A stretch of DNA of 64,000 bases from an uncultured bacterium. GTDB lineage: Bacteria > UBA8481. This document shows, one piece after another, positions 8,073 to 59,210 of this stretch. The notes under the pieces are model-generated. The model worked only from the letters and a program-made list of their open reading frames with translations, was not told the origin of the DNA and searched no databases. The translations under genes were made by a program, and so were the position numbers. The DNA lies in the NCBI GenBank assembly GCA_964548165.1, contig CAZJQD010000008.1, positions 1,979-65,978 of the forward strand, given 5' to 3'. Position 1 is the first letter of the stretch. Each line of letters starts with the position of its first letter.

Positions 8073-8129
8073 ACACCCCCCATCTCGCACTTGTAGATAT
8101 GGCAGGATCCTGTTCAGATTGAGCGGACA

Positions 8130-26888: not shown

Positions 26889-27716
26889 ATGGCGTCGAGA
26901 GGCGACAAGAAGGGGACAGCGCGGGACCGCCGACAGCGTCCAGGCGACGAGGAGGACGTGGCGCCCGCGGCCGCGGCCCCCGCAAGTTCACCGGTCTCCC
27001 GCTGGCGTCGCCTTCTGCTGGCGTTTGCCGGCCTCGTCCTGCTGATCGGTTCGACCGCCTTTGCCGGGGCCTGGATGGGTATCCGGTCGGTGGAAACCTC
27101 GATCAATCATGGGCCCCAGGAGGTCGAAGAGGACGAGAGCGCGAGCCTGCCGCAACTGACTCTGACGCGCGGCCTGGACATTTCGATGGAGCGCTCGCTT
27201 CCCAGGCAGGGCGGGGAGGATCGTTTCCTGAGGGGACTGGTCAACTGGCGGCCCGGGGGTCGATTATCCGAGTCGGCCCCGCAGTCACCGGTGACCCCGG
27301 ATCAGGAGGCGGACGTCGAGCGCCCGATGGTGCCGCGCCCGCTGGCGGACACGCGCGTGGATCGGGACCCGTCCATCATCAGCGCCGCGGCGGAGCGAGC
27401 GGGGAGGCTGGGGGGTGCTGAACCGATCCGCGCTCCTCGCGCCATCGCCGGCGCGCGTACGCCGGCCGAGACCGGTGCGACGGTCCCGGGCAATCCCGGC
27501 GCCGTCTTGCCTGATGCGAGCCCCCAGTACGGGGTTCCAGCCTCGACAATATCTCCTCCCTCCGTCTACAATGACGCGGTCGGCGAGGCTGGGCGGCGCT
27601 CTCCTGTTCCCTACGCGGCTGAATACGCGCCCCCGCTCATGCCACCGCCCGTTGACGCTTCGCCCTTGGAATCCGGGGATGACCCGGGTTGGCGCCAGCG
27701 AGGACTCGTACCTTGA
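26889..27716 (+). CDS. hypothetical Pro-rich membrane-anchored protein
   Basis: One TM helix (RWRRLLLAFAGLVLLIGSTAFAGAWMGI), GC3-rich coding statistics, no recognised domain. Lies directly upstream of the polysaccharide export block. Confidence 0.35.
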   Translation: MASRGDKKGTARDRRQRPGDEEDVAPAAAAPASSPVSRWRRLLLAFAGLVLLIGSTAFAGAWMGIRSVETSINHGPQEVEEDESASLPQLTLTRGLDISMERSLPRQGGEDRFLRGLVNWRPGGRLSESAPQSPVTPDQEADVERPMVPRPLADTRVDRDPSIISAAAERAGRLGGAEPIRAPRAIAGARTPAETGATVPGNPGAVLPDASPQYGVPASTISPPSVYNDAVGEAGRRSPVPYAAEYAPPLMPPPVDASPLESGDDPGWRQRGLVP

Positions 27717-27795
27717 ATGGGAGGCAGGAGGCTTGGATTCTTCCGGCATTTTGGATCTTGTGTTCAGGCGACCCGGTGCCGATGGTGCCAAGAGG

Positions 27796-29175: not shown

Positions 29176-29191
29176 GAAGCAGGCGAAATCC

Positions 29192-31270: not shown

Positions 31271-31280
31271 GAGCGGCGCG

Positions 31281-42456: not shown

Positions 42457-42890
42457 AAAACCTGATCATTATTGCCCTGGTTCTTGCCGCGGGCTGGTTC
42501 GGCTGGCAGAAGTTCACCCAGGGATACTGGGCCTCCGCCACGGCCAGGGACTTCGTCGAGGAACTGCGCCTCGGGATGGACAGCGGTTACCTCTCCAAGG
42601 CGATCAGCAGCTGGCAACCCCCGCTCCCGGAGAAGCAGCTGACGCTTCCGGCCGAGGGGATATCACCGGATTTCACGGTGACCATGGACAGCGAGCCCGT
42701 CCAGATCGCCGGGCGCACGACGATCTACTACCTCGTCACGTTCGGGAAGTCGCCCGTGGCCACGGGCGGTCGAAGCCTGCGCTACGAGTATCGCCTTACG
42801 CTCGTCAACGAGGGGACGAATTTCATCCCCAAGTGGACGACGGTCATGTTTCATCCCACGTCTCGCCGTGCGAATCGCGACGCGGCCTGA
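42453..42890 (+). CDS. small secreted/membrane-anchored hypothetical protein
   Basis: ATGA overlap with the upstream gene. N-terminal signal-anchor MKNLIIIALVLAAGWFGW. Confidence 0.45.
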   Translation: MKNLIIIALVLAAGWFGWQKFTQGYWASATARDFVEELRLGMDSGYLSKAISSWQPPLPEKQLTLPAEGISPDFTVTMDSEPVQIAGRTTIYYLVTFGKSPVATGGRSLRYEYRLTLVNEGTNFIPKWTTVMFHPTSRRANRDAA

Positions 42891-45153: not shown

Positions 45154-45249
45154 CGGCAGGGGAGGGTGCCTCGGCATCGTGAACCGCTTGCGACCGCGAC
45201 GGTCGTGGCGTCTTCAGGATACCGGGCAACGCAGAGAACGAGGCTGATC

Positions 45250-48120
45250 ATGCACGCATACCACATCCGGCTCATGAGGACGATCCTGGTTCTCTTTTTC
45301 ATGGGACTCACCGCGATCCTCCCGGCCCTGGCCCAATCCTCGGCGGGCGCGGGCAACATGGCGGCCCTGGCGCGCACCCATTATCAATTGGGCGTGCAGT
45401 ACGAGCGTGGCGGCCAGCCCGGCAAGGCGATCGACGAGTATCGCAGCGCATTCGAGGCCGACCCCACGCTCCTTGATGCCTATATCCAGTGCGGCAATCT
45501 CCTGGTGCGTAGCCAGCGGTTCACGGAGGCGGCCGAGGTGTACCGTCGCGCCGCGCAGGTGGATCGACGCCGCGCCGACCTCCAGCTCGTGCTGGGGGAC
45601 ATCTACCGCCAGCTCAACGACACGCGGGCCGCGCGCGACGCCTACTCCGCCGTTCTCGCCCTGGAGCCCCAGCACCCGAAGGCGACCCTGGAACTGGCGC
45701 GCCTGCAGATGAAGAGCGGCGCCTGGGCCGAGGCCGTTCGCGTCCTGGACGCGAACCGCGCCTTGTCCAACGATCCCGGAGCCCTGGCGGTTCGTGCCTA
45801 CTCCGAGCATCGCCTGGGGCGACTGGATATCGCCGCCCAGCTCTACGAGCGGCTTCTCGAAGCCAACCCGGAGAATGGCGATGCGCGCCTCAACCTGGGC
45901 ATCGTGGAGGCGGCCCGGGGCCGTACGGCCGAGGCCGTGGCGCAGTTCCAGCGCGCGACGCTCCTCGTCTCGGATAAGGCCCAGGCCTATCGCTACCTGG
46001 GCATGGCCCAGCTCGAAGCGGGCCGCGATCACGACGCGCTTGAGAGTCTCCGGCGCGCGGTCAGCGAGAACGGCTCCGATGTGGCCGCCCGCTACCGCCT
46101 GGCCCAGGTGCTCGTCAAGCTCTCCCGCCCGGTCGAGGCCGTTCAGCAGTTGGAGACCCTGCGTTCCTCCTCGGGAAACTTTCCCGAGCTGAGCGCGCTG
46201 CTGGGCCGGGCACTCCTGGCGGCGGGCCAAGTGCAGAGGGCGCGCGCCGAATTGGAGCGCGCTCATGCGGACAATCCCGGGGACACCGAGGTCACGCTGG
46301 CCCTGGCTGAGACCCTGCAGAAGGTTGGAGAGACGCGGCGGTCGCTGGAATTGTACGAGGCCGTGATCGCGCGCCGCAACGCACCGGCATTCGCCTACCG
46401 ATCCGTGGCCGACCTGCATGCCTCGCTCGGTGACGCCGTGCGCGCTCTCGAGTATGAGCGTGCGTACCAGGACCGGCGCCAGCGCGAGGACATCACGGAG
46501 GCGGTCAGCACCGAGCGTCGCTCCTGGCAGATGCGTCTCGACGAGACGCGGAGCAACCTGGAGCGCCAGCTGGCGGAGACGCGTCGCAGTGCCGACGAGC
46601 GCGTGCGCGCCGCCGAGGCGCGGGCCCAGGAGGCCTCGGTCGCGGCCCGCACCCAGGCGCGGGCCTGGGACACGGCGGCGGAGTGGGCTCGGCTCCAGCG
46701 CCAGGTCGATGAGCGCGTGGCGGAGATTCGCCGCGAGATCGAGACCCAGTACGGGGCGCGACCGAACGGCACGCCGGCGGGCACGAGCGCGCCCGTTCCG
46801 GTCGGCACGGGAGTGCCTCAGTCCCTGGCCGATGCGCGCCGGGCCGTGGACCTGGCCGAGCAGAGGGCGATGGCGGCGGAGAACGAGCTGCGCCGCCTTC
46901 GCGAGGGGCGACTGGACACCAGCGCCCAGGCGGAGATCTGGGCGGCGCGCGCCGCTTCCGAGCAGGCGCGGCAGAAGATCCTCGAGCTCTCGGCCGCGAT
47001 CGAGCGTGAGCGCGCGACGAGGGAAGAAGCGCAGGCGGGGGCCGAGCGCGTCCGCGCCGAGGCGACACGCGAAGTGCTCTCGATGCGCGCCCTCGTGGAG
47101 GGCGTGGATGCCGAGGTATGGCGTGGCCTGGGTGAGATTCGCGCGGACACCACGAATCTCCAGAACGAGGATCCGCTGGCGCGCCTGAAGTTCTATGTCC
47201 AGAACGTCCGGCTCTCGGCCGACGCCCGGGTCTCGCGGGCCCAGCTTGCGGCCGAGCAGAGGCTCAACGAGGCCAGGACGCGCGCGGAGTCGCAGGTGGA
47301 GCGCATTCTCCGCGACGCCCAGGGCCAGGTTGATCGAGCCCGCGTCCAGGCCGCCGAGGAGGTTCGGCGCAGTCAGCAGGCCGCGGATTCGCAGGTTGCG
47401 CAGAGGGTGTCGCAGGAGCGGGAGCGCCTCGCCTCGGAGGCCCTGGCCCGGCGGATGGCCCAGGCCGAGCAGTTGCGGGCAAGCATCGAGGCGGATGCCC
47501 AGGTGCGGTTCCTCGAGGAGAAGGCCCAGATCGAGGCCACGTACGAGGCCGATCGCATCCGCATGCAACGGGAATACGACCAACAGCTCGAGCGCTTCCA
47601 GTCCGAGTACCAGCGTCGCCTCGAGGCGGCTCAGGCCGAGTCGCGGCGCGCGAGCGAGCAGGTCGAGGCGCTGACCCGGAACGACACGGGCCTGTTGATG
47701 CGCTCCGAGGTCTACCAGAGGCTCGTTCGCGAGAATGCGATGGTCCGCGAGGATCTCGCCGGCGCTCGGCGAAGGCTCGAAGAGATGGGCCGCGACAAGG
47801 AAGACCTGGTTCGCGAAGCGGACGGGCTCCGGCGCGAGTTCGCCAACGTCCAGGCGCGGTTGGCGGCCCTGGAGCAGGAGTCGCGGCGCTTCTCGGGGAT
47901 CGAGGTCCTGGCCGAGCCCCTGCGCGCCGGCGTCGACCTCAATGCCGCCACGCTCGCGGAGCTCCAGGCGCTTCCCGGGGTCGGCATCCAGGAGGCGCGC
48001 AACATCGTCTGGTATCGTGAGAATGTCGGGCCGTTCCGCTCGACCGAGGAGCTCGTCAAGGTGCCGGGCTTCGAGGCCGCCAAGGCCCAGGCCATCCGCG
48101 CCCTCGTACGCGTCCGCTGA
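45250..48120 (+). CDS. secreted TPR + long coiled-coil protein ending in a ComEA-type helix-hairpin-helix DNA-binding domain (paralog 1)
   Basis: Signal peptide MHAYHIRLMRTILVLFFMGLTAILPALAQS. TPR block. About 500 aa Arg/Glu/Ala-rich coiled coil. C-terminal …VDLNAATLAELQALPGVGIQEARNIVWYRENVGPFRSTEELVKVPGFEAAKAQAIRALV, collinear with the ComEA HhH consensus (LNTA…EL..LPGIG…A.AI..YRE.NG.F.S.EDL.KV.GIG.K). Confidence 0.6.
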   Translation: MHAYHIRLMRTILVLFFMGLTAILPALAQSSAGAGNMAALARTHYQLGVQYERGGQPGKAIDEYRSAFEADPTLLDAYIQCGNLLVRSQRFTEAAEVYRRAAQVDRRRADLQLVLGDIYRQLNDTRAARDAYSAVLALEPQHPKATLELARLQMKSGAWAEAVRVLDANRALSNDPGALAVRAYSEHRLGRLDIAAQLYERLLEANPENGDARLNLGIVEAARGRTAEAVAQFQRATLLVSDKAQAYRYLGMAQLEAGRDHDALESLRRAVSENGSDVAARYRLAQVLVKLSRPVEAVQQLETLRSSSGNFPELSALLGRALLAAGQVQRARAELERAHADNPGDTEVTLALAETLQKVGETRRSLELYEAVIARRNAPAFAYRSVADLHASLGDAVRALEYERAYQDRRQREDITEAVSTERRSWQMRLDETRSNLERQLAETRRSADERVRAAEARAQEASVAARTQARAWDTAAEWARLQRQVDERVAEIRREIETQYGARPNGTPAGTSAPVPVGTGVPQSLADARRAVDLAEQRAMAAENELRRLREGRLDTSAQAEIWAARAASEQARQKILELSAAIERERATREEAQAGAERVRAEATREVLSMRALVEGVDAEVWRGLGEIRADTTNLQNEDPLARLKFYVQNVRLSADARVSRAQLAAEQRLNEARTRAESQVERILRDAQGQVDRARVQAAEEVRRSQQAADSQVAQRVSQERERLASEALARRMAQAEQLRASIEADAQVRFLEEKAQIEATYEADRIRMQREYDQQLERFQSEYQRRLEAAQAESRRASEQVEALTRNDTGLLMRSEVYQRLVRENAMVREDLAGARRRLEEMGRDKEDLVREADGLRREFANVQARLAALEQESRRFSGIEVLAEPLRAGVDLNAATLAELQALPGVGIQEARNIVWYRENVGPFRSTEELVKVPGFEAAKAQAIRALVRVR

Positions 48121-48121
48121 A

Positions 48122-48150
48122 CCTCAGCCGACGGACTGAGGATTTCGGGA
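48122..48150 (+). terminator. weak hairpin (cctcag-N8-ctgagg) plus atttc, immediately after the stop of the first ComEA-like gene; possible attenuator or terminator
   Basis: 6-bp stem at 48122-48127 / 48136-48141. Short, interrupted U-tract. Low confidence. Confidence 0.2.
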
Positions 48151-48187
48151 GTCTGCCGCCGACTTTTGCTATGATGCCGGGCAGGTC

Positions 48188-49747
48188 ATGAAGAGCTTCG
48201 CCTTGCCATCGGTAGTCCTCGTCCTCGCGCTCACCTCGCTTGCGGTTCCCGCCGTGGCGCAGGCGGCCGTCTCCCCCCGTGACACGACGCTGGCCGAGAT
48301 GGCCGCGGGTCTTCGAGCCAGCGACGAGGCGGTTCGCCGCATCGTCGAGCGCGCGATGGCGGCCGTGGAGCTCGCCGAGGCGCGCGCCAACCGCGAGGTG
48401 GCCCTCGCCCAGATTCGGATTGCCGATCTCGAGCGCGCCGTGGCGGCCCAGGGCGCGGAGATCGAGGCCTGGAAGCAGTCCGAGGCCGAGCTGGGGATCG
48501 CGTTGAATGCATCGCTGGCCGAGGCGGATCGCCATGCGCGGGAGGCCAGCGCCGCGGTTATGGAGCGCGATGATGCCCGGGCGCAACTGGCCGCCGCGCG
48601 CCTGGAATTGGCGGCGCTTGCCGAGTGGCGGGACACGGCGACGCGGGCCACGGCCCAGGCGCGTCGCGCGCTCGCGGAACGCGAGGAGCTGGCCGAGCGC
48701 CTCTCGGCCATGCATGCCCAGTTCGGTCTCAGTGAGCAAGCCGTGACGGAGGCGCGGGCGCGGGCGGAGGCCCTGGTCGCGCTCTACGGGGATACGCTGG
48801 CGGCCCTGGGCCGCGAGAACGAGACGCTGCGGGCCAGCATCGGCCAATTCCAGGATCGCATCCAGGCCTACCAGCACCGATCCGGCGTGATGGAGGAATC
48901 CTTGCGACAAGAGGCAGCCCGCGCCGCGTCCTGGGAGACCGCGATCGTCGAGATGCGGGCTCGGGTGGCGGAACATGACCGCGTCCTGGCGGAGGAACGA
49001 TCGGCCAGGGCTTCGGAGCGGCGCCAACTGGCGGACAGCCTGGCCTGGGAACGCGGGCGGGCAGCCGATCTCGGTCGGGCCCTGGACGCGGAGCGGGCGA
49101 GGCTAGGCGACCTCGAGGCGCGGCACGCCGCGTTGACGGAATCCGAGCGGGCGGCGCGCGCGGCCCTGGCGGCGGGCGCGGGATTGACCGAGACCGTCAA
49201 CGCCGTCATGGCCGAGCGTGATGCGCTGAGGATCGAACTCCAGAGCACGGTGCAGGTCCTGAACGATGCGGCGACCGCGCTGGCATCGGCGCGCGCCGAG
49301 CGGGACGAGGCCCGGCGCGGCATCGCTCCCGTAATGCCCTCGGAGGCGTCGCAGGTCGCATTGCTCGAGGCTCGACTGGCGGCCCGTGACCGCGAGATCG
49401 CGGCGCTTCGCCAGGCCCTGCTGGCCGTCTCCTCGCCACTGTCCCCTGGCGCTGTCGTCACCGTGCCGGTCGAGACCGCGCCGCCCGTGGCCGCCACGCC
49501 GGTCGTGATCCCGCCGGCTCCGGTCGTCCCGCCTGAAGTCCCGGCCTATGATTTTGACCCGATGCGCGGAAGTTATGACGACCTGGCCTCCATTCCCGCC
49601 GTGGGACCGACGCGGGCGCGGGCCATCGTCTGGTATCGCGAGAACGTGGGGCCGATTCGCGGCGAGAACGATCTCAAGTCCGTCCCTGGTTTCAACGATG
49701 ATCGGATCAGGCTGTTGCGCCCCTTCTGGCGCTCGAAGGAGAACTGA
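48188..49747 (+). CDS. secreted coiled-coil protein ending in a ComEA-type HhH domain (paralog 2)
   Basis: Signal peptide MKSFALPSVVLVLALTSLAVPAVAQA. About 400 aa coiled coil, Pro-rich linker. C-terminal …YDDLASIPAVGPTRARAIVWYRENVGPIRGENDLKSVPGFNDDRIRLL shares the signature AIVWYRENVGP(F/I)R…(K/S)VPGF with paralog 1. Confidence 0.6.
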   Translation: MKSFALPSVVLVLALTSLAVPAVAQAAVSPRDTTLAEMAAGLRASDEAVRRIVERAMAAVELAEARANREVALAQIRIADLERAVAAQGAEIEAWKQSEAELGIALNASLAEADRHAREASAAVMERDDARAQLAAARLELAALAEWRDTATRATAQARRALAEREELAERLSAMHAQFGLSEQAVTEARARAEALVALYGDTLAALGRENETLRASIGQFQDRIQAYQHRSGVMEESLRQEAARAASWETAIVEMRARVAEHDRVLAEERSARASERRQLADSLAWERGRAADLGRALDAERARLGDLEARHAALTESERAARAALAAGAGLTETVNAVMAERDALRIELQSTVQVLNDAATALASARAERDEARRGIAPVMPSEASQVALLEARLAARDREIAALRQALLAVSSPLSPGAVVTVPVETAPPVAATPVVIPPAPVVPPEVPAYDFDPMRGSYDDLASIPAVGPTRARAIVWYRENVGPIRGENDLKSVPGFNDDRIRLLRPFWRSKEN

Positions 49748-51506: not shown

Positions 51507-51721
51507 GCCCGGCACCAAGATCGGGGGTACGGGCTCCCGGTGATCGTGGATCGGCCCCTGTCGTCTTCAACCCGCCGCTCTTCTACCCGGCATGCCTGCT
51601 GGGCCACCTCAATTTCACTCACGCGGTCATCGGAGTGATGGCCGTGGTACCGCTCTTTCTCGCCGCGCGCCACTGGCTCGGCAATCGCGTGGGCGCGGCG
51701 TCCGTCGCGTCCCACAGGCGA

Positions 51722-52750
51722 TCATCCTGGCATGCGCGCCATGAGCTTCCATGGCCGCATCCAGACGAAGGCGGGAAACCCTTCGATGGCCCAGCTGAAG
51801 GGGAGGGGATCGTCATTGAAGACATCAAGCCGCGGCCAGGCCCATGGCGCGTGATCGGCGCGCGCCACTCCGGGCGTGGCCATCAGGCACGAACAGTATC
51901 CCAGCCGCGCGAGTTCGGGTCCGACCACGGGAGACGTGTCCCGGGCCTGTCCATAGGGATACGAAAAGAAGGCCGGTGGTCTGCCCGTCAGGGCTTCAAT
52001 TCGCTCGTGAGCGCCGCGGATCTCGGCCAGCGCGTCGGAGGGTGATAGGGAACCGAAGGAGGAATGCGTCGTTCCGTGACTGCCGATGACATGCCCCGCG
52101 CGGTGCAGGGAAACAACCTCGTTCTCGTCCAGGTAGAGTCGACTTTCACCTGGCGAAGGGGGACACAGGCCGGTCTCCCGGAGAATTCGCTCCAGCAGGC
52201 TTTCCCGTTCTTCGCCGTACACCGTGCCGCGCAGGGAGGTTTCCAGGGCCTTCGCCGACTCCCAGCGACCATCCGTGGCCTGTCGAACCACCCTGTCCGC
52301 TGCGGGACCGACGCGACGGCGCCACCAGAACCAGCGATGCAACCAGAGATAGCGCCGGTTGCCGACGCCGTCGGTGGCGAGAAAGAAGGCGGCCGGGATC
52401 CCGTGGCGTTCCAGTATGGGGGCGGCGATCCGCGCGTTATCACCGAAGCCGTCGTCGAACGTGATCGTGACGATGCGGTCCTCGCCGCGTGTAGACGCCG
52501 CGATGAACTCGTTCAAGCCGAGAACGCGATAGTGCTTGAGCAACCACAGGAGTTGCTCCTCGAAATGACCGGGTGTCACGTAGAGGCCGAGCGCATCCGG
52601 GATGAAATCATCATTTTGATCCCGGATCCGGTGATAGAGCAGGATCCGTCCGATCCCCTTGCGCCGGCGCAACCGTTCGAGGCCACCCAGGCCCGACGCC
52701 ACTTTCATGCCTGTTCGCGCGCAGGCGTGGGCCACGGAGCGGAGGCTCAT
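51722..52750 (-). CDS. polysaccharide deacetylase-family (NodB/CE4; ArnD-like) protein
   Basis: NodB motif IVTITFDDGFGDN. Start refined to MSLRSV, which overlaps the formyltransferase stop (ATGA). 342 aa. Confidence 0.75.
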   Translation of the reverse strand: MSLRSVAHACARTGMKVASGLGGLERLRRRKGIGRILLYHRIRDQNDDFIPDALGLYVTPGHFEEQLLWLLKHYRVLGLNEFIAASTRGEDRIVTITFDDGFGDNARIAAPILERHGIPAAFFLATDGVGNRRYLWLHRWFWWRRRVGPAADRVVRQATDGRWESAKALETSLRGTVYGEERESLLERILRETGLCPPSPGESRLYLDENEVVSLHRAGHVIGSHGTTHSSFGSLSPSDALAEIRGAHERIEALTGRPPAFFSYPYGQARDTSPVVGPELARLGYCSCLMATPGVARADHAPWAWPRLDVFNDDPLPFSWAIEGFPAFVWMRPWKLMARMPG

Positions 52751-53571
52751 CGATGGTCCGGCGGCTCGGGGACGAGGATGCCTCGGCGAAGATCCCGGAG
52801 ACATCGCGCGCGGTAGCCGGGGGCCGGAGCCCGGTAGACCTTCCCCCCGGGCCTGGTCGCTTGAGGCGAGGCGGTCCGATCGACGATCGAGCGCACCAGG
52901 CTCGGAAGCCGTTCCACCGCGCGCCGAAGGCAATCATCGTAGCAATCCTCCGGATCCCGGTATCCTCCCTGGTGAATGATCTGCTCGTGGTGGATCGGGC
53001 CGCGATCGAGCTCAGGGGAAATCTCGTGGAACGTGAAGCCGACGGGCCCGCCAGTGACCAGCGCCCAGAAGATCGTCTCGGTTCCGCGATAATGGGGGAG
53101 TATCCCCGTGTGGTAGTTCAGGATGGTCCCGGAAACGAGTCGCAAGGTCTCTGCCGAGAGAATCCGGGTTCCGGCGACGAGCACGTGGTCCAGTTTTTGA
53201 GCCTCGAGGACGACCGCGGCTTCCGGGGAGTTGAGATCCGAGACGATGGTCACGGGCACGCCGAACCGACGCGCCACGTCCGCGACCGGGGTTGCCTGCC
53301 GGCGGCGGCGGTGGAGCCAGCGGGCCGGCCATAGCAGGGCCCGTGGGACCAGGGAAAGCCCCTCGGATTTCAGGCGGGCGCGCCAATGTCTTGCCGTGGC
53401 GCGAGGACCGCTTCCCGCGTCGATCGTGACGATCAAGTCATAGCCTTCCGGGGCGAGAGCGGTGACGAACGCGGCGCCGGAGAAGGAATGGGGAACGGTC
53501 CAGATGCCGATCCGCGCCGGGCTCGAATGGGCGGACAAGTCCATGCCGGATGAACGATCAGGTCTCTCCAT
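52747..53571 (-). CDS. formyltransferase (Fmt/ArnA-N-terminal-type sugar N-formyltransferase family)
   Basis: Formyl_trans_N catalytic segment ILNYHTGILPHYRGTETIFWALVTG and FTFHEISPELDRGPI. Confidence 0.7.
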   Translation of the reverse strand: MERPDRSSGMDLSAHSSPARIGIWTVPHSFSGAAFVTALAPEGYDLIVTIDAGSGPRATARHWRARLKSEGLSLVPRALLWPARWLHRRRRQATPVADVARRFGVPVTIVSDLNSPEAAVVLEAQKLDHVLVAGTRILSAETLRLVSGTILNYHTGILPHYRGTETIFWALVTGGPVGFTFHEISPELDRGPIHHEQIIHQGGYRDPEDCYDDCLRRAVERLPSLVRSIVDRTASPQATRPGGKVYRAPAPGYRARCLRDLRRGILVPEPPDHR

Positions 53572-53630
53572 CCAGGTGGTCCTTTCGAGGAGTTTCGAAC
53601 GAGATCCGGCAGGGGACCGTAACCGAGGAT

Positions 53631-53652
53631 GCTACGCCCGGACGAGCGTAGC
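53631..53652. other. 7-bp perfect palindromic hairpin (gctacgc-N8-gcgtagc) in the spacer between the methyltransferase and formyltransferase genes of the minus-strand operon
   Basis: Read directly. Possible intra-operon processing or attenuation site. Confidence 0.3.
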
Positions 53653-53720
53653 GAACGGCGGAGGGCGGAGTCAAGCGCGTGCCCCCCGCGGCATTGTCGG
53701 CGGCATCTTCTCCCGCGGGA

Positions 53721-54596
53721 TCATGATGGACGACTGAGCCTCGCTTCCAGCGTGGCCGGTTCGGCGCGGTAGAGTCCTGAGAGGACCAGGGCCAGCGGGA
53801 GAAGAAACGGGATCAGCAGCAGGGACACGAGGCCCCATGCGCGCGCACGGGGGTCGCCCTTCAAGGTGCGATAGAACGCATTGGGCTCCGGGAGGATGAG
53901 GTTGAGCATGGTCTGCAGCCAGCCGGCAGGATCGTATTCCCGGCGTGTTCCCGATTCATCCACCAGGCTGAGCTCGCAGGCTGCGGCGAACGCGCGGAGC
54001 GTCGCGCGCGTCAGGTGCGTGCGGTGGCGGGGAGGATCGAGGTGGAACCAGGCCGCGCGTCCCCACTGCGATTGCGTGGAGTTGAAATTGGGCACGGCCA
54101 GGAAGAGCGTTCCTCCCGGAGCGAGCAGCGCCGCGAGGCGCTTCAAGCGCGGCAGTGGATCGTCGAAGTGCTCGAAGGAGTGCCAGAGCGTGATGAGCTT
54201 GGGGCGGAACGCGGACCGCTCGACGTCCTCCACGGTTCGAAACTCGGCGTGGGGAGCGAAGGGATCAAGGCCCCGCGCATCCCAGCCGAGCGCGCGCGCC
54301 GCGCGGACGAAGTCGCCCTCGCCGGATCCGCAATCGAGCAGTGGTCCCGGGCGAGCGCCCGCCAGGATGCGCCTCCGGGAGGCGCCGACGCCGGGCAGGA
54401 GTTTCTTGAACCATCCGATGGAGAAGTAGGGGAGAGGGTAGGAAGCGCCCGAACCGATGGTGCGCACGAGACCGCAGGGCTCGCAGCGGACGATCCGGTA
54501 CGTGTCCTGCGGTGCCGACGGATCCCTGGCCTCAAACAGCGCCTGGAAGGCCGGCGATCCGCAGAGCGGGCAGACCTCAGAGCCTGAAGAGGACAT
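53721..54596 (-). CDS. class I SAM-dependent methyltransferase with N-terminal Cys4 zinc ribbon
   Basis: CPLCGS…CEPCG ribbon. SAM motif I LLDCGSGEGDF. Post-I acidic residue. Hydrophobic C-terminal tail. 20-nt overlap with the downstream (5') GT2 gene. Confidence 0.7.
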   Translation of the reverse strand: MSSSGSEVCPLCGSPAFQALFEARDPSAPQDTYRIVRCEPCGLVRTIGSGASYPLPYFSIGWFKKLLPGVGASRRRILAGARPGPLLDCGSGEGDFVRAARALGWDARGLDPFAPHAEFRTVEDVERSAFRPKLITLWHSFEHFDDPLPRLKRLAALLAPGGTLFLAVPNFNSTQSQWGRAAWFHLDPPRHRTHLTRATLRAFAAACELSLVDESGTRREYDPAGWLQTMLNLILPEPNAFYRTLKGDPRARAWGLVSLLLIPFLLPLALVLSGLYRAEPATLEARLSRPS

Positions 54597-55305
54597 GACG
54601 AATCCACAGGTACCAGATGTGAAGGATCATCTGCACGCCGATGACGACGGCCGTCCAGCGGCTCGATGTCAGCCCGGGTCGTCCGACCCTCGGGCGAAAG
54701 TGCAGCGGGATCTCGACGGTCTGGCCGTGTCGAATCATGTGGAACATCATTTCCGGTGAGAAGTGAGAACCGCCCACGGTAAAGAGGTTGCGGATGCGCT
54801 CGTAGAGGGGCCGGCTGATGAGCCTCATGCCGCAACCGACGTCCGTCAGCGACGGGCGGCCCAGCAGGAGTTCCATCATCTTGGCGACGGCCCAGTTTCC
54901 ATACTTCAGAAAGGGGCCCATGTTGGCTCCGGCCCAGATCATGGATGTCGACGTCCGCGTCCCGAAGACGCCGTCGAAGTCGTCGGAGTAGAGCAGGAGC
55001 TTCCGGATGTCCTCGCCGCGGAACGTCAGGTTCGGCGGCGCGTGGATGAGGAGGTCTCCCGTGGCCGCCGCCAGGCCCGCCTGGCACGAATGGCCGTAGC
55101 CTTGCTTCGCGACGGGAACAAGCCGGACTCGTGGATCCTCCTTCCTGTGAAGCTCGACCTCGCGGACGGTGCCGTCCGTGGAGTTGTTGTCGGTAACGAC
55201 GATCTCGTCTACCACGTCGAGCCCGAACTCGCGTATGGCCTGCCGGATGGATTCCTCGTAGTTGTAGCAGAGCAGCACCACGGAGACGCGCTTGCCCTTC
55301 CACAC
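54577..55305 (-). CDS. GT2 polyprenyl-phosphate glycosyltransferase (DPM1/ArnC/GtrB-like)
   Basis: VSVVLLCYNYEESI…VVTDNNSTDGT…(DxD-like)…GTR, plus a single C-terminal TM (AVVIGVQMILHIWYLWI). 242 aa. Confidence 0.8.
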   Translation of the reverse strand: MWKGKRVSVVLLCYNYEESIRQAIREFGLDVVDEIVVTDNNSTDGTVREVELHRKEDPRVRLVPVAKQGYGHSCQAGLAAATGDLLIHAPPNLTFRGEDIRKLLLYSDDFDGVFGTRTSTSMIWAGANMGPFLKYGNWAVAKMMELLLGRPSLTDVGCGMRLISRPLYERIRNLFTVGGSHFSPEMMFHMIRHGQTVEIPLHFRPRVGRPGLTSSRWTAVVIGVQMILHIWYLWIRHVLFRL

Positions 55306-55306
55306 G

Positions 55307-56554
55307 TCAGAGGATCCGGAGAGCGGGAACCGGGATGATGTAGCGACCTCCGCGGGTCGAGAACGCGCTTGTCTTCTCCACGATCTCGTCCACGAAGTTC
55401 CAGGCCAGGATCAGGAGGTAATCGGGAGGCTCCGTGTCCAGGCGGGATCGGGGCGAGATCGGAATCCTCGTGCCCGGGGCCAGGTGGCCCTGCTTTTCGG
55501 GGGTATCGTCGACGATGTACTGCACGAGCGTGGAATCCGCCTGGGCGGCATTGAGGAGGATGGCGCCCTTGGCGCTCGCGCCGTACGCGGCCACGCGCTT
55601 GCCTTCCTCCCGGAAACGGGTCAGCGCCGTGCGCAGTTCGCCTCGAATCCAGTCGATTTCTCTCGCGAAGCGGCGGTAGGGATGTTCCTCGTGAAGCCCT
55701 GCGTCCCTCTCGAAATCGAGCATGGCTCGAACGGCGTCGCTGGCGTACGTGCCGCGCCCGAAGTAGAGCCGGAGTCCACCTCCGTGGATGGGAATCCGGC
55801 GAACGTATCGAGCGCGAAGCCCATGGCGCTCTCCCAGCCGGAGAAGGGGTTGGAGCAGGAAGTAGGAAAGATGCTCGTGGTAGATCGTGTCGAACTCGCT
55901 CTTCTCGACGAGATCGGCCAGGTAGGGGACTTCGAGGACGAAGTGGCCGGTCGGCGCGAGGACGCGCGCGACGGCAGAGAAAAACTCGTCGAGGTCATCG
56001 ACGTGCGCGACGACGTTCGTGGCCGTCACGAGCTCCATGCAGGGCCACTGCCGGGCGGATTTCTCCGCTGCTTCGTGTCCCCAGAACGCCGAGAGAACCT
56101 CGTGGCCGGCCGCCCGGGATGTGGGGGCAAGATTGCCAGCCGGGTCGACCAGGTGCGTGCGATATCCGCGCCCCGCGAAGGAGGAGAGGAGCGTGCCATC
56201 ATTGCCGCCGATATCGAGCACGGGGGCGCCCCTGGGAAGGCCTGCAATTTCCTCGGCCTCGCGAGCGAAGCGGTCGCAGTGTCGGATGAACGTGGACGAT
56301 ACGCCCGACCGGTAGGCATAGGTCGTGAACATGAGCGCGGGGTCGACGACGACGCTCAACTGGGCATTGGCGCAATCCATGCACCGCATGACCACCAGGG
56401 GTATGCGGGGTTCGGGAGCCCTGTCGTCAGGGGAGATGAAGCGATTGGCCAGCGGCATGAGACCGAGATCGACGATGACACTGAGGCGGCGACCCCCGCA
56501 GATGCGGCACTCTTCCCGCGGGTGATACGACGCATCGCCCATGGCGGTCTGCAT
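55307..56554 (-). CDS. SAM-dependent sugar C-methyltransferase (TylC3/NovU-like; Zn-ribbon + Methyltransf + C-methyltransferase C-terminal domain)
   Basis: N-terminal CRICGG…CMDC ribbon. SAM motif VLDIGGNDG. C-terminal domain typical of NDP-hexose C-methyltransferases. 415 aa. Confidence 0.7.
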   Translation of the reverse strand: MQTAMGDASYHPREECRICGGRRLSVIVDLGLMPLANRFISPDDRAPEPRIPLVVMRCMDCANAQLSVVVDPALMFTTYAYRSGVSSTFIRHCDRFAREAEEIAGLPRGAPVLDIGGNDGTLLSSFAGRGYRTHLVDPAGNLAPTSRAAGHEVLSAFWGHEAAEKSARQWPCMELVTATNVVAHVDDLDEFFSAVARVLAPTGHFVLEVPYLADLVEKSEFDTIYHEHLSYFLLQPLLRLGERHGLRARYVRRIPIHGGGLRLYFGRGTYASDAVRAMLDFERDAGLHEEHPYRRFAREIDWIRGELRTALTRFREEGKRVAAYGASAKGAILLNAAQADSTLVQYIVDDTPEKQGHLAPGTRIPISPRSRLDTEPPDYLLILAWNFVDEIVEKTSAFSTRGGRYIIPVPALRIL

Positions 56555-56735
56555 GACGTAACCATAGCTTCAGCCCTCGAATTGGAAAAGGTCTAATCCG
56601 GTCTGCAGGCGCGCCACATCGGGCCCGGAAGGATCCCCTGGCGAAGCGTCCGGACCTGTCCTGCCCCCGGCAAGACCCGAGGTGGCGGGCAGGAGTGTTG
56701 ACCGTGGCGGGCGCGCGGTTCGCTACGGAGCGGGT

Positions 56736-57212
56736 TCAGTCGAGGCGTTCGGGATGGCCCGTGAAGCGAAGGCCGATGGCGCCGCGGAGTCCTGTTGCCG
56801 CCGCGTTGTAGGCGGTCTTCATCTCCTGGTAGTTGCGGAGCGCGATGGCGCGGCGGTTCTGGGCGCCGGCGAGTTCATCGGCGGCGCGACGTGACAGGGG
56901 ATCATCGACGGCGGTGGACGGGCGCGGAGCCCGACCCGCGGCGGAGAGGATCCCGTTGTAGAGCCGATCTTTCTCGCTGGAGCTCGTGGCGCCCCGGTAG
57001 GAGGCGATGGCCGCGTCGACCTCGCTGCCCGCTATGCCGGCCGCGCCGAGCGCCGCGAGGACGCGCTCCTCCTGGTTTCTCAGCTCGGCCTCGGCCGCCC
57101 CGACCTCCCTGATCAGTCCATTCATGTGGTTGGAGCAGTCCCAGGCGACGGCGGCCAGAAGGAGCGCGACGAAGACAAGGCCCGCGCAACCGATAAAGGC
57201 CAGGCCGCGCAT
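56736..57212 (-). CDS. LemA-family protein, divergent paralog
   Basis: N-terminal TM (GLAFIGCAGLVFVALLLAAVAW), then LemA-like helical region (NHMNGLIREVGAAEAELRNQEERV… versus canonical YNQLVKARNA…). Confidence 0.5.
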   Translation of the reverse strand: MRGLAFIGCAGLVFVALLLAAVAWDCSNHMNGLIREVGAAEAELRNQEERVLAALGAAGIAGSEVDAAIASYRGATSSSEKDRLYNGILSAAGRAPRPSTAVDDPLSRRAADELAGAQNRRAIALRNYQEMKTAYNAAATGLRGAIGLRFTGHPERLD

Positions 57213-57292
57213 GGGGATGCCCGGCTCGCCGGCGGCCGACGGGGCACCCTGGGAGCCCGGCGCGGCCGCGGAAGAGGTCGACGGAGCGTCGC

Positions 57293-57865
57293 TCAGAACT
57301 TGACCTGCGGCGCACGCTCCACGAGCTCGTCAGGGACGTCGTAGAACGCGCGAGGTTGGAAGCCGAAGAGGCCGGCAAAGAGGACGGTGGGGAACTGCTG
57401 GCAGGTGTCGCGATACATGCGGGCCACGCTGTTGTAACCGTTGCGCGCCGCGGCGATCCGGTTCTCGGTGTTCGTCAGCTCGTTCTGCATGTTCATGAAG
57501 TTGGCGTCCGCCTTCAATTGCGGGTAGGCCTCGGCGACGGCCAGGAGGCCACGCAGCGCCTGGGTCAGCGCGCCGTCGGCGTTTCCGACCTCGGCGGGAC
57601 CATGAGCGGAGGCCGCTCGTCCGCGGGCCGCGATCACGGCCTCCAGCGTCTTGGATTCGTGGGTGGCGTAGCCCTTCACGCTCTCGACCAGGTTGCCGAT
57701 GAGGTCGAGTCGTCGCGCGAGGTCGACCTCGATATCGGACCAGGCCTGGTCGGTGGCGTTTCTCGCCTTGACGAGCTGGTTGTAGAGGGCGGCCATCCAT
57801 CCGAAGAAGATCACGGCCACGACGAGCACGACGAGCGCCGTGATCCCCAGGATTCCCATCATCAT
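57293..57865 (-). CDS. lemA: LemA-family protein
   Basis: Start refined to MMMGILGITALVVLVVAVIFFGW with SD AAGGAG. LemA signature …YNQLVKARNATDQAWSDIEVDLARRLDLIGNLVESVKGYATHE…. Confidence 0.75.
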   Translation of the reverse strand: MMMGILGITALVVLVVAVIFFGWMAALYNQLVKARNATDQAWSDIEVDLARRLDLIGNLVESVKGYATHESKTLEAVIAARGRAASAHGPAEVGNADGALTQALRGLLAVAEAYPQLKADANFMNMQNELTNTENRIAAARNGYNSVARMYRDTCQQFPTVLFAGLFGFQPRAFYDVPDELVERAPQVKF

Positions 57866-57998
57866 GTTTACGTCTCCTTGTCCTGTTCCCGACCATTCCG
57901 GCCTGGCCGGACTGGTCGCCAAGGGGGGCGCGCCAACAGATCCCCCTCGAACTCCCCCCGGCGCCTCGTCCGCTTCCAGTGACCGGCGCCCGCCCTGG

Positions 57999-59210
57999 CT
58001 ACCATCCGCGCGACGCGCCGCCGCCGCCGCTCATGCCTCCTCCGAATCCGCCGCCCGAGCTCGAACCGCCGCCCGAGGAGGACGAGATCCGTGGAATAGT
58101 GGCGTATCGCGTCGTCTGATGCTTGCAGGCGGCGCAATGACCGTCAACTCGCTTCTGGCCGCTCGATACCGTGGTCGCCGGCGAGAGGACCGTCTCGGTC
58201 TCCTTCATCGTTCGTCGCCCGCACCTCGGGCAGGGGATGAAGCCGGAGAACCAGGCCACGTACTCCTTCGTCTCGTACTTCAGGCAGCGAGGACAGATCC
58301 AGACGTCGTAGTCGACGGCACCCAGCTCTTCCTCCAGGCGCTGCTCGACGGAAAGGCTGGCGTCGTCGTCGGTCTCGGAGAGGAGCCGGAGCCGGGTGCC
58401 GCAGGTGCGGCAGGAGTGGGGGCCGTAGCGGAGAAAGCCGCGCGTGTTGGTGATGAGCGAGACGACGAGGAGCGCGGCGCTTCCCGCCAGGAGCGGCAAG
58501 AGATCACCCGATGCCGTCTTATCGAACAGGATGTTGAGGCCGACTCCGCCTGTCACGAGCGCCGAACCACCGGCGATGACACTCCCGACCAGGAACGCGA
58601 AGGGCGGATAGTTCTCGCGGTGTCGTCCCCACCAGCCCAGGAGGAGCTGTCCCAACCCTGCCAAGGCGCCGAAGAGTGCGGCCCCCCACGTGATGCCACG
58701 CTTGCCGCGCAGGAAGGCGGGCGCCGAGCTCGCAAAGCCCCGCGCCTCCTCGGGGTGGGCGCGTAGGCGCGCCGTGATCGCCATCGCTGCGGCCTCGACG
58801 CCGCCGGCGAAGTCGCCGTCGCGGAAGCGGGGAATGGCATGCTGATCCAGGACCTCGCCGCAGAGCCCGTCCGGGAGGATCGGCTCCAGGCCGTAGCCGA
58901 CCTCGATTCTCGCCCGTCGCTCGGTCGGCGCCACGAGCAGAAGGACGCCATTGTTGCGGTCGCGCTTGCCGATGCCCCAGGCATTGAAGAGCCCGTTGGC
59001 ATACTCGTCGACGGACTGCCCCTCGAGGGAGTTGACCGTGACGATGGCAAGCTCGGCCGTCGTGGCCGCCTCCATCGCGCGCGCCTCGACCTCCAACTTC
59101 TCCTCGATCGCCGGCGGCAGGATCTCGGCCAGGTCGAGGACGCGTCGGCCGGAAGGGGGCGATGGATAGGCGAGAGCCCCGGCGAGCAGTACTGCGGCCA
59201 GGACCTTCAT
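57999..59210 (-). CDS. TPM-domain protein (YgcG-like) with TM segments, a Cys-rich zinc-ribbon region and a Gly-rich tail
   Basis: Signal peptide. TPM domain (…AELAIVTVNSLEGQSVDEYANGLFNAWGIGKRDRNNGVLLLVAPTERRARIEVGYGLE…). Two TM helices. Four CxxC (CRTC, CPRC, CPRC, CAAC). Tail GGGSSSGGGFGGGMSGGGGASRGW. Confidence 0.7.
   Translation of the reverse strand: MKVLAAVLLAGALAYPSPPSGRRVLDLAEILPPAIEEKLEVEARAMEAATTAELAIVTVNSLEGQSVDEYANGLFNAWGIGKRDRNNGVLLLVAPTERRARIEVGYGLEPILPDGLCGEVLDQHAIPRFRDGDFAGGVEAAAMAITARLRAHPEEARGFASSAPAFLRGKRGITWGAALFGALAGLGQLLLGWWGRHRENYPPFAFLVGSVIAGGSALVTGGVGLNILFDKTASGDLLPLLAGSAALLVVSLITNTRGFLRYGPHSCRTCGTRLRLLSETDDDASLSVEQRLEEELGAVDYDVWICPRCLKYETKEYVAWFSGFIPCPRCGRRTMKETETVLSPATTVSSGQKRVDGHCAACKHQTTRYATIPRISSSSGGGSSSGGGFGGGMSGGGGASRGW

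Follow-up and report, generated by a model that had tools for sequence, protein, structure and literature searches.

A minus-strand operon that may encode the cytoplasmic half of a split extracytoplasmic glycosylation system

The window analysed here is a stretch of 64,000 nucleotides from an uncultured bacterium. A sequence-only reading had claimed a five-gene operon on its minus strand at 51722-56554, and we found all five open reading frames (ORFs) at these coordinates, each encoding a protein with the Pfam domain expected of it. In the direction of transcription, the features of the locus are:

56555..56735, minus strand: upstream intergenic region of 181 nt, the presumed operon promoter region (gap to a 158-aa ORF at 56736-57212)
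55307..56554, minus strand: C-methyltransferase, TylC3/MtmC-type NDP-hexose, 415 aa (Pfam and PDB matches)
54577..55305, minus strand: small GT2, polyprenyl-phosphate glycosyltransferase type, 242 aa (Pfam, PDB, NCBIfam)
53721..54596, minus strand: Zn-methyltransferase, a zinc-ribbon class I SAM enzyme with one C-terminal transmembrane (TM) helix, 291 aa (Pfam, TM scan)
53572..53720, minus strand: gap of 149 nt between the Zn-methyltransferase and formyltransferase genes (read from sequence)
52747..53571, minus strand: formyltransferase, stand-alone short N10-formyl-THF type, 274 aa (Pfam, family alignment)
51722..52750, minus strand: CE4 deacylase, predicted cytoplasmic, 342 aa (Pfam, motifs, alignment)

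Reading the junctions directly, we found that 1 nt separates the C-methyltransferase stop from the GTG start of the GT2 gene, that the GT2 and Zn-methyltransferase genes overlap by 20 nt, and that the formyltransferase and CE4 genes meet at an ATGA with a 4-nt overlap, as had been claimed for both overlaps. Because the ATGA junction places the CE4 start at 52750 (342 aa), the upstream TTG at 52933 chosen by the ORF lister was rejected. All five ORFs are uninterrupted, their codon bias is normal, and their third-position GC of 0.75-0.85 is typical for the window. None of the five proteins reached a curated NCBIfam cut-off, and neither a sigma-70 consensus nor an Rfam element was found in the 181-nt upstream region. 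The operon arrangement is far beyond chance, as this order of genes is found again in metagenome contigs independent of one another. The 149-nt gap is the boundary between two modules, each of which also exists apart from the other: the C-methyltransferase-GT2(-Zn-methyltransferase) block is found without formyltransferase and CE4 in two related loci (L006, L009), and metagenome loci carry the formyltransferase-CE4 pair without the C-methyltransferase-GT2 block.

The first protein of the operon has Pfam matches to Methyltransf_13 (1.2e-17), Methyltransf_23 (7e-16) and Methyltransf_14 (2.2e-49), and aligns over its full length with the D-mycarose 3-C-methyltransferase structure 4rv9 (5e-90) as well as with TcaB9 and 5t64 (about 1e-69). 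A zinc site formed by C16/C19/C58/C61 precedes the SAM domain and a C-terminal sugar-nucleotide domain, and the motif YHEHLSYF lies at residues 225-232. The Zn-methyltransferase (Methyltransf_23, 1.6e-20) carries CxxC pairs at residues 9-12 and 38-41 and, by TM scan, a TM helix at residues 254-276; it probably acts at the membrane face, with the sugar as its methyl acceptor. Its orthologues occupy this place behind the GT2 gene in L006 (49% identity) and in L054, where the two genes likewise overlap by 20 nt.

The GT2 (Glycos_transf_2, 3.5e-15) had been called ArnC-like. Its specific matches in PDB and NCBIfam are to polyprenyl-phosphate (Pren-P) glycosyltransferases only: the best PDB matches are the ArnC structures 9hwj, 9bhc and 8vxh (2e-7), and the top NCBIfam matches are dolichyl-P-hexose transferase, AglJ and ArnC, all far under their cut-offs. 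To that extent the label holds, but it is overstated, for the DXD motif and both ArnC TM helices are absent. DXD is conserved across the whole Pren-P glycosyltransferase family (ArnC structural paper), and in ArnC D100 is the proposed base and D102 a metal ligand. In the alignment, the window protein has APPNLTF at this position (residues 89-95; window 55021-55041), and PPN or IPN stands in place of EPD/DAD both here and in all four orthologues linked to a C-methyltransferase; in ArnC numbering, D100 is replaced by P or I, D102 by N and Q104 by T. Every family member keeps the equivalents of R128 and R205, by which ArnC binds the phosphate of Und-P, so that the protein lacks one Pren-P hallmark and retains another. 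No TM helix was predicted by TM scan, compared with two in ArnC; an amphipathic helix occupies the C terminus (residues 217-242), the only confident part of a single-sequence AF2 model (pLDDT 40.8). By alignment, the active site of the enzyme is unusual.

The loss of both DXD carboxylates, together with the lack of a neighbouring GT-C in the window only, could mean that the GT2 has lost its transferase activity and works as a partner protein that binds lipid or sugar without catalysis, or that the operon is a decaying remnant. We consider this very improbable, given that R117, D155-x-G-C and R206 are still present and invariant, and that the five ORFs are uninterrupted and normal in codon bias. 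Moreover, five independent lineages (the window, L054, L002, L006 and L009) have the C-methyltransferase and GT2 genes side by side or overlapping, and all of them keep the PPN/IPN form; GT2 identity across these lineages (71-87%) exceeds that of the adjacent C-methyltransferase (56-68%), which argues for strong purifying selection. A GT-C has also been retained beside the GT2 in three of the lineages.

These GT-Cs belong to the PMT_2 family and lie close to the GT2 in three of the four orthologous loci (L002, L006, L009); in L002 the GT-C gene runs 14 nt into the GT2 3' end, and in L006 it is at most about 850 nt away. In L009, an RmlD-like reductase gene sits between the C-methyltransferase and GT2 genes. 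In both L006 and L009 the C-methyltransferase-GT2-GT-C module occurs without any formyltransferase or CE4. The L006 GT-C carries the JGI label 'ArnT-like'. A sister clade of GT2s (44-52% identity, seven phyla) shows the same tendency: a polytopic membrane protein is encoded within 1.2 kb in 13/16 loci, and Pfam assigns it to PMT_2 in L012, L014, L019 and L020. By tblastn, L011, L012 and L024 carry a window-type CE4 immediately 3' of the sister-clade GT2, and in L014 a homologous CE4 aligns at the same position. One sister-clade member matched AglJ (1e-23), Dol-P-hexose transferase, PpgS and ArnC in NCBIfam.

The formyltransferase (Formyl_trans_N, 2.6e-13; Formyl_trans_C absent) had been described as resembling the ArnA N-terminal domain, and this was borne out. 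The peptides cited for it are present, the triad N152/H154/D189 is intact and invariant as N/H/D in a 42-member family alignment, and the family profile matched the ArnA formyltransferase domain best (1.8e-36), ahead of Fmt (1.5e-33) and GDP-perosamine formyltransferase (1e-29); with the single sequence, Fmt and ArnA-type models scored equally, so a best match to Met-tRNA Fmt was not found. Among 1.8e9 representatives there were no relatives above about 41% identity. The CE4 (Polysacc_deac_1, 1.7e-20) contains ILLYHRI (36-42), TFDDG (97-101), HGTTH (225-229) and FSYPYG (262-267), with an insertion of about 75 aa between motifs 1 and 2, and neither a signal peptide nor a TM helix was predicted. 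Although TFDDG is present, the description of this protein as ArnD-like goes too far: it belongs to another CE4 branch, the ArnD model did not match it even at E<=1 (a genuine ArnD scores 523 bits), and its top NCBIfam matches are HfsH (first), PdaB, IcaB and PgaB. It aligns with the CE4s encoded behind the GT2 genes of the sister clade.

Formyltransferase followed by CE4 is a conserved two-gene cassette: of 23 metagenome loci, at least 12 have a window-type CE4 directly 3' of the gene for a formyltransferase relative. A second pair of CE4 and formyltransferase, non-orthologous and with a 4-nt overlap, is present in L002. Such cassettes also occur in Wzx/Wzy and GT4-rich loci (L032, L033, L044) and are therefore not specific to lipid-phosphate systems. 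This bears on a conventional polysaccharide modification, in which an ordinary GT2 would add a C-methyl, N-formyl or O-methyl sugar to an Und-PP repeat unit for Wza/Wzc/Wzy export, with HfsH-like partial deacetylation by the CE4. A Wza-Wzc-Wzc-Wzy_C block is present in the window at 27.4-35 kb, HfsH heads the CE4 matches, orthologues of the C-methyltransferase are found with GT4s, other GT2s, TylF and Wzx (L008, L028, L029), and no GT-C is nearby. We nevertheless regard this reading as rather unlikely, in view of the exclusive similarity of the GT2 to Pren-P enzymes, the GT-C or polytopic neighbours of its sister and orthologous loci, and the separation of the operon from the Wzy block, which lies 17 kb away on the other strand beyond unrelated genes.

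The host is a high-GC outer-membrane (diderm) bacterium with lipid A genes; the window encodes an LpxL-like acyltransferase, a secretin and a SurA-like protein. As had been claimed, the window contains neither an ArnB-type aminotransferase nor an ArnT-like GT-C: tblastn queries with ArnB, ArnT and the C-domain of ArnA (all E. coli) and with three PMT_2 proteins of related loci gave no hit. A flippase, a 4,6-dehydratase and a 4-ketoreductase are likewise missing from the window, in which the only large polytopic proteins are the Wzy_C protein about 20 kb away and a 296-aa protein with 8 TM helices. A strict Arn analogue along the lines of the earlier reading, in which an NDP-4-amino-3-C-methyl sugar is N-formylated, the GT2 loads it onto undecaprenyl phosphate, the CE4 removes the formyl group and an ArnT-like enzyme encoded elsewhere transfers it to lipid A phosphate, would account for the clustering of formyltransferase, GT2 and CE4, the translational coupling of the first and last, the ArnA-type family profile, the lipid A genes and the JGI name of the L006 GT-C. 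It is quite improbable all the same. The aminotransferase that a formyl on/off cycle requires is absent from the window and from within 10 kb of the L002 pair; the CE4 is of a type other than ArnD, DXD and the ArnC TM helices are missing from the GT2, and L006 and L009 dispense with formyltransferase and CE4 altogether. The GT-Cs partnering the GT2 relatives did not match the ArnT model (a real ArnT scores 806 bits), which leaves lipid A unsupported as the target.

We favour, at a probability of roughly 0.5, the reading that a three-component system for extracytoplasmic glycosylation is split here, and that the operon, built from two joined modules, is its cytoplasmic half at the membrane face. 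The missing signal peptide of the CE4 and the C-terminal helices of the GT2 and Zn-methyltransferase speak for it; the lost DXD carboxylates, the genes missing from the window and the cassettes found outside lipid-phosphate systems speak against it. The products of the five genes probably make a methylated (amino)sugar with a methyl branch and place it on a lipid carrier in the membrane, for later transfer outside the cell. The domain identities, the intact catalytic motifs, the coupling of the genes and the recurring pairs (C-methyltransferase with GT2, GT2 with GT-C, formyltransferase with CE4) are observed directly, and from them we infer the substrates, reaction order and acceptor as follows. 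In the first module, the C-methyltransferase would, from its family chemistry, C-methylate an NDP-4-keto-6-deoxyhexose from the housekeeping pool; the GT2 would move the finished sugar to polyprenyl phosphate, as suggested by homology and the GT-C neighbours of its orthologues; and the tail-anchored Zn-methyltransferase may add another methyl at the membrane. In the second, the formyltransferase and CE4 would act on an amino group of this sugar, either through an Arn-style transient N-formyl added before lipid loading and removed after, or through acetyl-to-formyl exchange, with the CE4 acting first and the formyltransferase second. The loaded lipid would next be flipped, and a PMT_2-type GT-C, which is not encoded beside the operon, would transfer the sugar to an envelope acceptor. 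The earlier logic of modifying a nucleotide sugar, transferring it to polyprenyl phosphate and deacylating it thus survives in the domains and comparative loci, although its ArnC and ArnD labels were too strong. On this reading, the operon represents a variant of the lipid-phosphate donor and GT-C glycosylation scheme not described before in this form.

Among known systems, the operon follows the logic of Arn polymyxin resistance but is not the Arn pathway. With Arn of E. coli and Salmonella it shares the grouping of formyltransferase, Pren-P-type GT2 and CE4, the Asn-His-Asp triad of the ArnA domain, and PMT_2-family GT-Cs as partners of the orthologous GT2s. It differs in that the window lacks ArnB, ArnT, ArnE/F and the UDP-GlcA decarboxylase domain, the 274-aa formyltransferase stands alone without the C-terminal subdomain, the 242-aa GT2 has no TM helices and PPN in place of DAD, the CE4 is of another branch, two extra methyltransferases are present, and lipid A as acceptor is unsupported. 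The best PDB matches of the formyltransferase include short sugar N-formyltransferases (WbkC-type GDP-perosamine, VioF, WlaRD, Rv3404c) and the LgrA F domain, which have the same triad, about 240-275 aa and a single Formyl_trans_N core with a short C-terminal extension. Core identity is at most about 30-40%, however, and the window enzyme has about 40 residues inserted after the second strand and belongs to a family consistently paired with a CE4 gene, a pairing that to our knowledge has not been described for the known enzymes.

The deacylase aminosugar systems of Bordetella (LgmA/B/C), Francisella (FlmF2/NaxD/FlmK) and Mycobacterium (PpgS/Rv3779) have a GT2, a deacylase and a GT-C among their required genes; they handle plain HexNAc, without a formyltransferase or C-methyltransferase. 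LgmA, LgmB and LgmC are needed for GlcN on lipid A (PMC4993483). The likeness is one of enzyme class, with a weak PpgS match of the sister-clade GT2 in sequence, and on-carrier deacetylation would fit the GT2-CE4-PMT_2 order of the sister clade (Omnitrophota, Ratteibacteria). Three-component periplasmic glycosylation systems (GtrA/GtrB/Gtr*, CsbB/GtcA/YfhO and the pentofuranose systems, PMC11127046) make a polyprenyl-phosphate sugar with a cytoplasmic synthase and combine this enzyme with a flippase and a GT-C. The GT2 family of the window shares the GT2-GT-C gene neighbourhood, whereas the window locus itself lacks flippase and GT-C, its GT2 lacks TM helices and DXD, and its donor would be tailored by a C-methyltransferase. 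We know of no description of a lipid-phosphate donor tailored in this way. The TylC3/EryBIII/MtmC/TcaB9/KijD1 C3-methyltransferases share with the window enzyme a three-domain layout, a four-Cys zinc site and full-length similarity; known members supply antibiotic or O-antigen deoxysugar pathways relying on soluble Leloir glycosyltransferases, whereas the window clade is translationally coupled to a Pren-P-like GT2.

The five minus-strand open reading frames that the sequence-only reading had placed at 51722-56554 were all recovered, each with the Pfam domain proposed for it above the gathering score:

Genes of the operon in transcriptional order, with Pfam matches
55307-56554, minus strand: TylC3/MtmC-type sugar C-methyltransferase (C-MT); Methyltransf_13, Methyltransf_23 and Methyltransf_14
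54577-55305, minus strand: family 2 glycosyltransferase (GT2); Glycos_transf_2, 3.5e-15
53721-54596, minus strand: zinc-ribbon methyltransferase (ZnMT); Methyltransf_23
52747-53571, minus strand: formyltransferase (FT); Formyl_trans_N, 2.6e-13
51722-52750, minus strand: deacylase (CE4); Polysacc_deac_1, 1.7e-20

The proposed overlaps were likewise seen, 20 nt between GT2 and ZnMT and 4 nt (ATGA) between FT and CE4, the latter setting the CE4 start at 52750 (342 aa). Read from the sequence, C-MT and GT2 are separated by a single nucleotide, and FT is preceded by a 149-nt gap after ZnMT. GC content by codon position in these genes is typical of the window. Scans of the operon for promoters, terminators and Rfam elements returned nothing above background, and no tRNA genes were found. 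As the 3' end is faced by a convergent ankyrin-repeat gene and a LemA/TPM set lies upstream past a 181-nt gap, the operon is an isolated five-gene unit, outside any large glycan island. The upstream set (56736-59210, minus strand), which directly precedes the operon on the same strand, encodes three proteins that are probably unrelated to it: a 158-aa protein with an N-terminal anchor, a LemA protein (57293-57922), and a Cys-rich, Gly-tailed membrane protein of 403 aa (57999-59210) with no Pfam match on record.

C-MT matches the D-mycarose 3-C-methyltransferase structure 4rv9 (5e-90, residues 15-411) along its whole length, as it does TcaB9 and 5t64 (about 1e-69); it retains four zinc Cys residues and carries all three Pfam domains above cut-off. 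Judged from these alignments, its placement among the TylC3/MtmC/TcaB9 NDP-hexose C-methyltransferases is secure. Approximately 14 relatives share 56-68% identity with C-MT, and the next ones share at most 47%. ZnMT contains two CxxC pairs and one C-terminal transmembrane (TM) helix.

Relatives of C-MT and GT2 occur together at several loci of other genomes or metagenomes (designated L002, L003 and so on):

Loci carrying both C-MT and GT2, with identity to the window protein in brackets
L054: C-MT (68%), GT2 (87%), and ZnMT with the same 20-nt overlap
L002/L003/L010 (Hydrogenedentota MAG): C-MT (60%), GT2 (81%), PMT_2 (convergent), CE4, and a 252-aa FT-like protein
L006: C-MT (56%), GT2 (79%), ZnMT (49%), PMT_2, DUF2079
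L009: C-MT (62%), RmlD-like reductase, GT2 (71%), PMT_2

The gene orders in L054, L002, L006 and L009 mark the C-MT-GT2 pair as a conserved, translationally coupled unit, and in L002/L003/L010 the CE4 and FT-like genes overlap by 4 nt. Of the four other lineages, three (L002, L006 and L009) complete the pair with an acceptor transferase of the GT-C type, encoded at 12847-14445 in L006 and at 7132-8661 in L009, and the window is the exception. Elsewhere, C-MT orthologues accompany GT4s and Wzx (L008) or another GT2 and TylF (L028, L029), while those of L004, L005 and L030 have no such partners and lie near RmlD-like and GT87 genes. The orthologues at L004 (4730-5962) and L030 (3714-4898), which have no GT2, adjoin an RmlD-like reductase and have a GT-C gene of family GT87 at most approximately 5 kb away, an arrangement that may point to the same sugar taking a second lipid-linked route.

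The observation that the window holds no ArnT-like protein was borne out, as no similarity to PMT_2, ArnT or any other GT-C was found in its 64 kb. When the PMT_2 proteins of L002, L006 and L009 were used as a profile query, the only matches were distant GT39/GT83-like proteins, none of which could be attributed to this MAG, and among the operon genes no GtrA, SMR, MATE or ArnE/F-like flippase was recognised. Of the polyprenyl-phosphate sugar synthase, flippase and GT-C that together make up a three-component system, the window holds the putative synthase alone. We also considered a hydrophobic stretch of approximately 50 aa (51566-51720, plus strand), located past the CE4 stop and before the ankyrin gene, where relatives have a convergent GT-C gene, as the relic of a lost GT-C-like gene. 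By tblastn (5e-4) it is similar to residues 92-140 of the DUF2079 membrane protein encoded behind the GT-C in L006, but it has no Pfam DUF2079 match at E<=1 and a geometry unlike a simple truncation, so this reading was dropped and the similarity is probably due to chance.

The GT2 (242 aa) finds its best PDB matches in three ArnC structures (2e-7 to 1e-6), and among NCBIfam models it scores highest, though far under the cut-offs, with dolichyl-phosphate hexose transferase, AglJ and ArnC; as a GT-A GT2 catalytic domain it is most similar to the polyprenyl-phosphate glycosyltransferases (Pren-P GTs). Its description as ArnC-like holds for this similarity and for the Arg residues that bind the lipid phosphate, but not for the DXD motif or the C-terminal TM helices. 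Whereas ArnC, GtrB and DPMS carry two (or four) C-terminal TM helices after juxtamembrane helices, the window GT2 has none, no 19-residue segment attaining the hydrophobicity threshold, and it ends in a single amphipathic helix (residues 217-242). A single-sequence structure prediction was confident in the C-terminal helix only (mean pLDDT 40.8), and the model was for that reason rejected as input for a fold search.

In ArnC, the DXD motif lies in 100-DADLQN-105, with D100 proposed as the base and D102 serving as metal ligand, and R128 and R205 bind the lipid phosphate (10.1101/2025.01.29.634835). When the GT2 family was aligned with E. coli ArnC (12 sequences including ArnC), the DXD position read APPNLT in the window, likewise PPN in L002, L006 and L054, and IPN (SIPN) in L009, so the window-type GT2s are without the equivalents of both carboxylates. 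The sister clade, comprising more distant GT2 relatives without a C-MT, has EPD there. Both phosphate-binding residues (R117 and R206 in the window) are invariant across the 12 sequences, as is D155-x-G-C. By alignment, then, the window GT2 fails a defining feature of ArnC and the Pren-P GTs. An enzyme that has lost both carboxylates may be non-catalytic, although we consider this very improbable: the GT2s are 71-87% identical while the C-MTs are only 56-68% identical, which argues that the changed form is under selection rather than decaying. A catalytic GT2 without DXD could be metal-independent, use another donor, or rely on a compensating residue, for example the clade-specific Arg in LLGRPS. 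From the GT-C neighbours of its orthologues, polyprenyl phosphate is the putative acceptor.

A scan of GTDB representative genomes identified 16 further loci, in Omnitrophota, Ratteibacteria, Nitrospirota, Chloroflexota, Planctomycetota, Marinamargulisbacteria and Acidobacteriota, whose GT2s are 43-53% identical to that of the window and form the sister clade. C-MT is present in none of the 16. A polytopic membrane protein is encoded at most 1.2 kb from the GT2 in 13 of them, and is PMT_2 by Pfam in L012, L014, L019 and L020. A CE4 of the window's subfamily (tblastn) comes right after the GT2 at L011, L012 and L024, and at L014 a homologous CE4 aligns at the same position, with methyltransferases nearby; the CE4s of these loci share the motifs ILxYHRI, TFDDG, GSHxxTH and FxYPYG. 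One sister-clade GT2 matches AglJ at 1e-23, as well as Dol-P-hexose transferase, PpgS and ArnC. Together this provides strong contextual evidence that the family supplies GT-C enzymes with lipid-phosphate sugar donors, following the three-component glycosylation logic reviewed in PMC11127046.

Two sister loci have further features of note. An Omnitrophota MAG (L012, 5666-16122) carries an array with four detected PMT_2 paralogues, two different GT2s, two methyltransferases and a CE4, interrupted by an IS200-like transposase; with similar arrays in L013, L014 and L024, it looks like a multi-acceptor lipid-phosphate glycosylation island. In a Chloroflexia MAG (L016, 10752-11618), the sister-clade GT2 is followed by a Trm112p-like zinc ribbon fused to Methyltransf_11, an architecture that parallels the window ZnMT, and then by a gene for a 444-aa protein with six TM helices and no Pfam family.

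No relatives of FT were returned by a k-mer-based homologue search, and the best among 1.8 billion representatives searched exhaustively shares 41% identity (3e-20). The FT family is a diffuse one of stand-alone enzymes of roughly 255-280 aa (FT itself has 274), in which the catalytic triad N152, H154 and D189 is invariant across a 42-sequence alignment. The family profile best matches the ArnA formyltransferase domain (129 bits, 1.8e-36), followed by Fmt (120 bits, 1.5e-33), GDP-perosamine formyltransferase (107 bits, 1e-29) and then the LgrA F domain. As a single sequence FT scores 43.8 bits against fmt, 42.1 against PRK06988 and 32.9 against the curated ArnA model, whose cut-off is 777; across family members, NCBIfam ranks PRK06988 above ArnA and ArnA above fmt. 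Pfam detected Formyl_trans_N alone in FT, with neither Formyl_trans_C nor a fused decarboxylase, whereas Fmt and ArnA both possess a C-terminal domain (tRNA-binding in Fmt). Orthology of FT with Fmt was rejected on account of this missing domain and a score of 43.8 bits against a cut-off of 201.5.

CE4 displays the deacylase motifs TFDDG (97-101), HGTTH (HxxxH, 225-229) and FSYPYG (262-267), and no signal peptide was found. Its earlier designation as ArnD-like was discarded after a positive control: CE4 gave no match to the ArnD model NF011923 at E<=1, against 523 bits for E. coli ArnD, and a phmmer search with E. coli ArnD against CE4 returned nothing at E<=10. Its best matches, all weak, are HfsH, PdaB, IcaB and PgaB. 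GT2 and CE4 might instead serve in a conventional polysaccharide role, for which the HfsH match speaks; we regard this as unlikely, as the GT-C neighbours of the GT2 family point to lipid-phosphate donors.

A metagenome scan with a 4-sequence FT alignment returned 23 loci, and in at least 12 of these a window-type CE4 lies immediately downstream of FT (L033, L035, L036, L040, L041, L043, L044, L046-L049 and L053). CE4 genes stand on both sides of the best FT relative (L032), in the company of a methyltransferase, GT4s and PMT_2. Other surroundings include Wzx, an acyltransferase and Wzy_C (L044), Wzy_C (L033), an ArnC-like 331-aa GT2 (L040) and DegT aminotransferases (L038, L052). As the pairing recurs in such varied surroundings, FT-CE4 is a portable two-gene unit of glycan loci, joined in the window to the C-MT-GT2-ZnMT block across the intergenic gap. 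Its conservation supports coupled formyl/deacyl chemistry in either reaction order. An Arn-style cycle, in which formyl is added, the sugar loaded and formyl removed, needs an aminotransferase, which is absent in the window and near L002; in the alternative order, where N-deacetylation by CE4 frees the amine for formylation by FT, none is needed.

The host is a high-GC diderm, with secretin, GspE, GspF, an LpxL-like acyltransferase, a SurA-like chaperone and SMC recognised by Pfam in the window. An MGDG_synth-like glycosyltransferase (799-1992, plus strand) precedes the LpxL-like lipid A acyltransferase (2077-2880, plus strand), and the latter indicates a lipid A-containing outer membrane. An outer-envelope target, LPS or other, is possible but not indicated. 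The Arn-like reading finds partial support, and a strict analogue of Arn acting on lipid A is improbable in our estimation: the FT triad and the Pren-P-type GT2 stand on the side of the Arn-like reading, but the ArnD-type CE4, the DXD motif and a GT-C in the window are all missing.

Further envelope-related genes are found on the plus strand. Those at 3764-9340 resemble type II secretion or type IV pilus genes and encode a 910-aa secretin (N-terminal TPR, N0, Secretin_N, Secretin), an ATPase of the GspE type and a platform protein of the GspF type. Modified sugars might be consumed by a block for polysaccharide export and assembly that lies 17 kb from the operon, on the opposite strand:

Polysaccharide export/assembly block, 27415-34981
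27415-29175, plus strand: Wza-like Poly_export/SLBB protein
29192-31270 and 31281-33530, plus strand: two Wzc-like proteins (AAA_31, GNVR, Wzz)
33530-34981, plus strand: Wzy_C protein with 11 TM helices

Three consecutive large proteins are encoded at 42868-49747 (plus strand): a Pro/Ala/Ser-rich protein of 761 aa with TPR ends, a 984-aa protein with TPR and a long Glu/Arg/Ala-rich coiled coil, and a 519-aa coiled-coil protein. The second and third share a helix-hairpin-helix-like tail of approximately 55 aa (…VWYRENVGP(F/I)R…VPGF…) reminiscent of ComEA.

Collectively, we favour, at a probability of about 0.5, the reading of a split three-component glycosylation system whose cytoplasmic half is this operon. 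Such a system would load polyprenyl phosphate with an (amino)sugar that is C-methyl-branched and further methylated, with the FT-CE4 unit providing a transient formyl protecting group or acting as an acetyl-to-formyl exchanger. More tentatively, and with doubt prevailing, the GT2 orthologues may constitute a DXD-dispensing Pren-P GT clade dedicated to the C-methyl-branched sugar from the coupled TylC3-type enzyme, and FT-CE4 a portable amine-handling unit for different glycan pathways. The systems occur in the poorly known phyla Hydrogenedentota, Omnitrophota, Ratteibacteria, Planctomycetota and Chloroflexota, whose envelope chemistry is, to our knowledge, essentially unexplored, and the operon enzymes are all small and fit for heterologous work.

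Relative to known systems, the novel elements are the coupling to C-MT, a GT2 clade without DXD and the conservation of the FT-CE4 cassette. The branched-chain (C-methyl) deoxysugars that we know of belong to antibiotic and O-antigen pathways with soluble glycosyltransferases. If our reading is correct, this would be the first branched-chain sugar to reach the cell envelope via a lipid-monophosphate donor and a GT-C, adding C-methyl deoxysugars to the repertoire carried on polyprenyl phosphate, and FT-CE4 would be a widely distributed, previously unremarked two-gene unit for amino-sugar tailoring. A conserved DXD-less Pren-P GT clade would also call into question the recent mechanistic proposal for ArnC, GtrB and DPMS that assigns the role of base to the first Asp and metal binding to the second.
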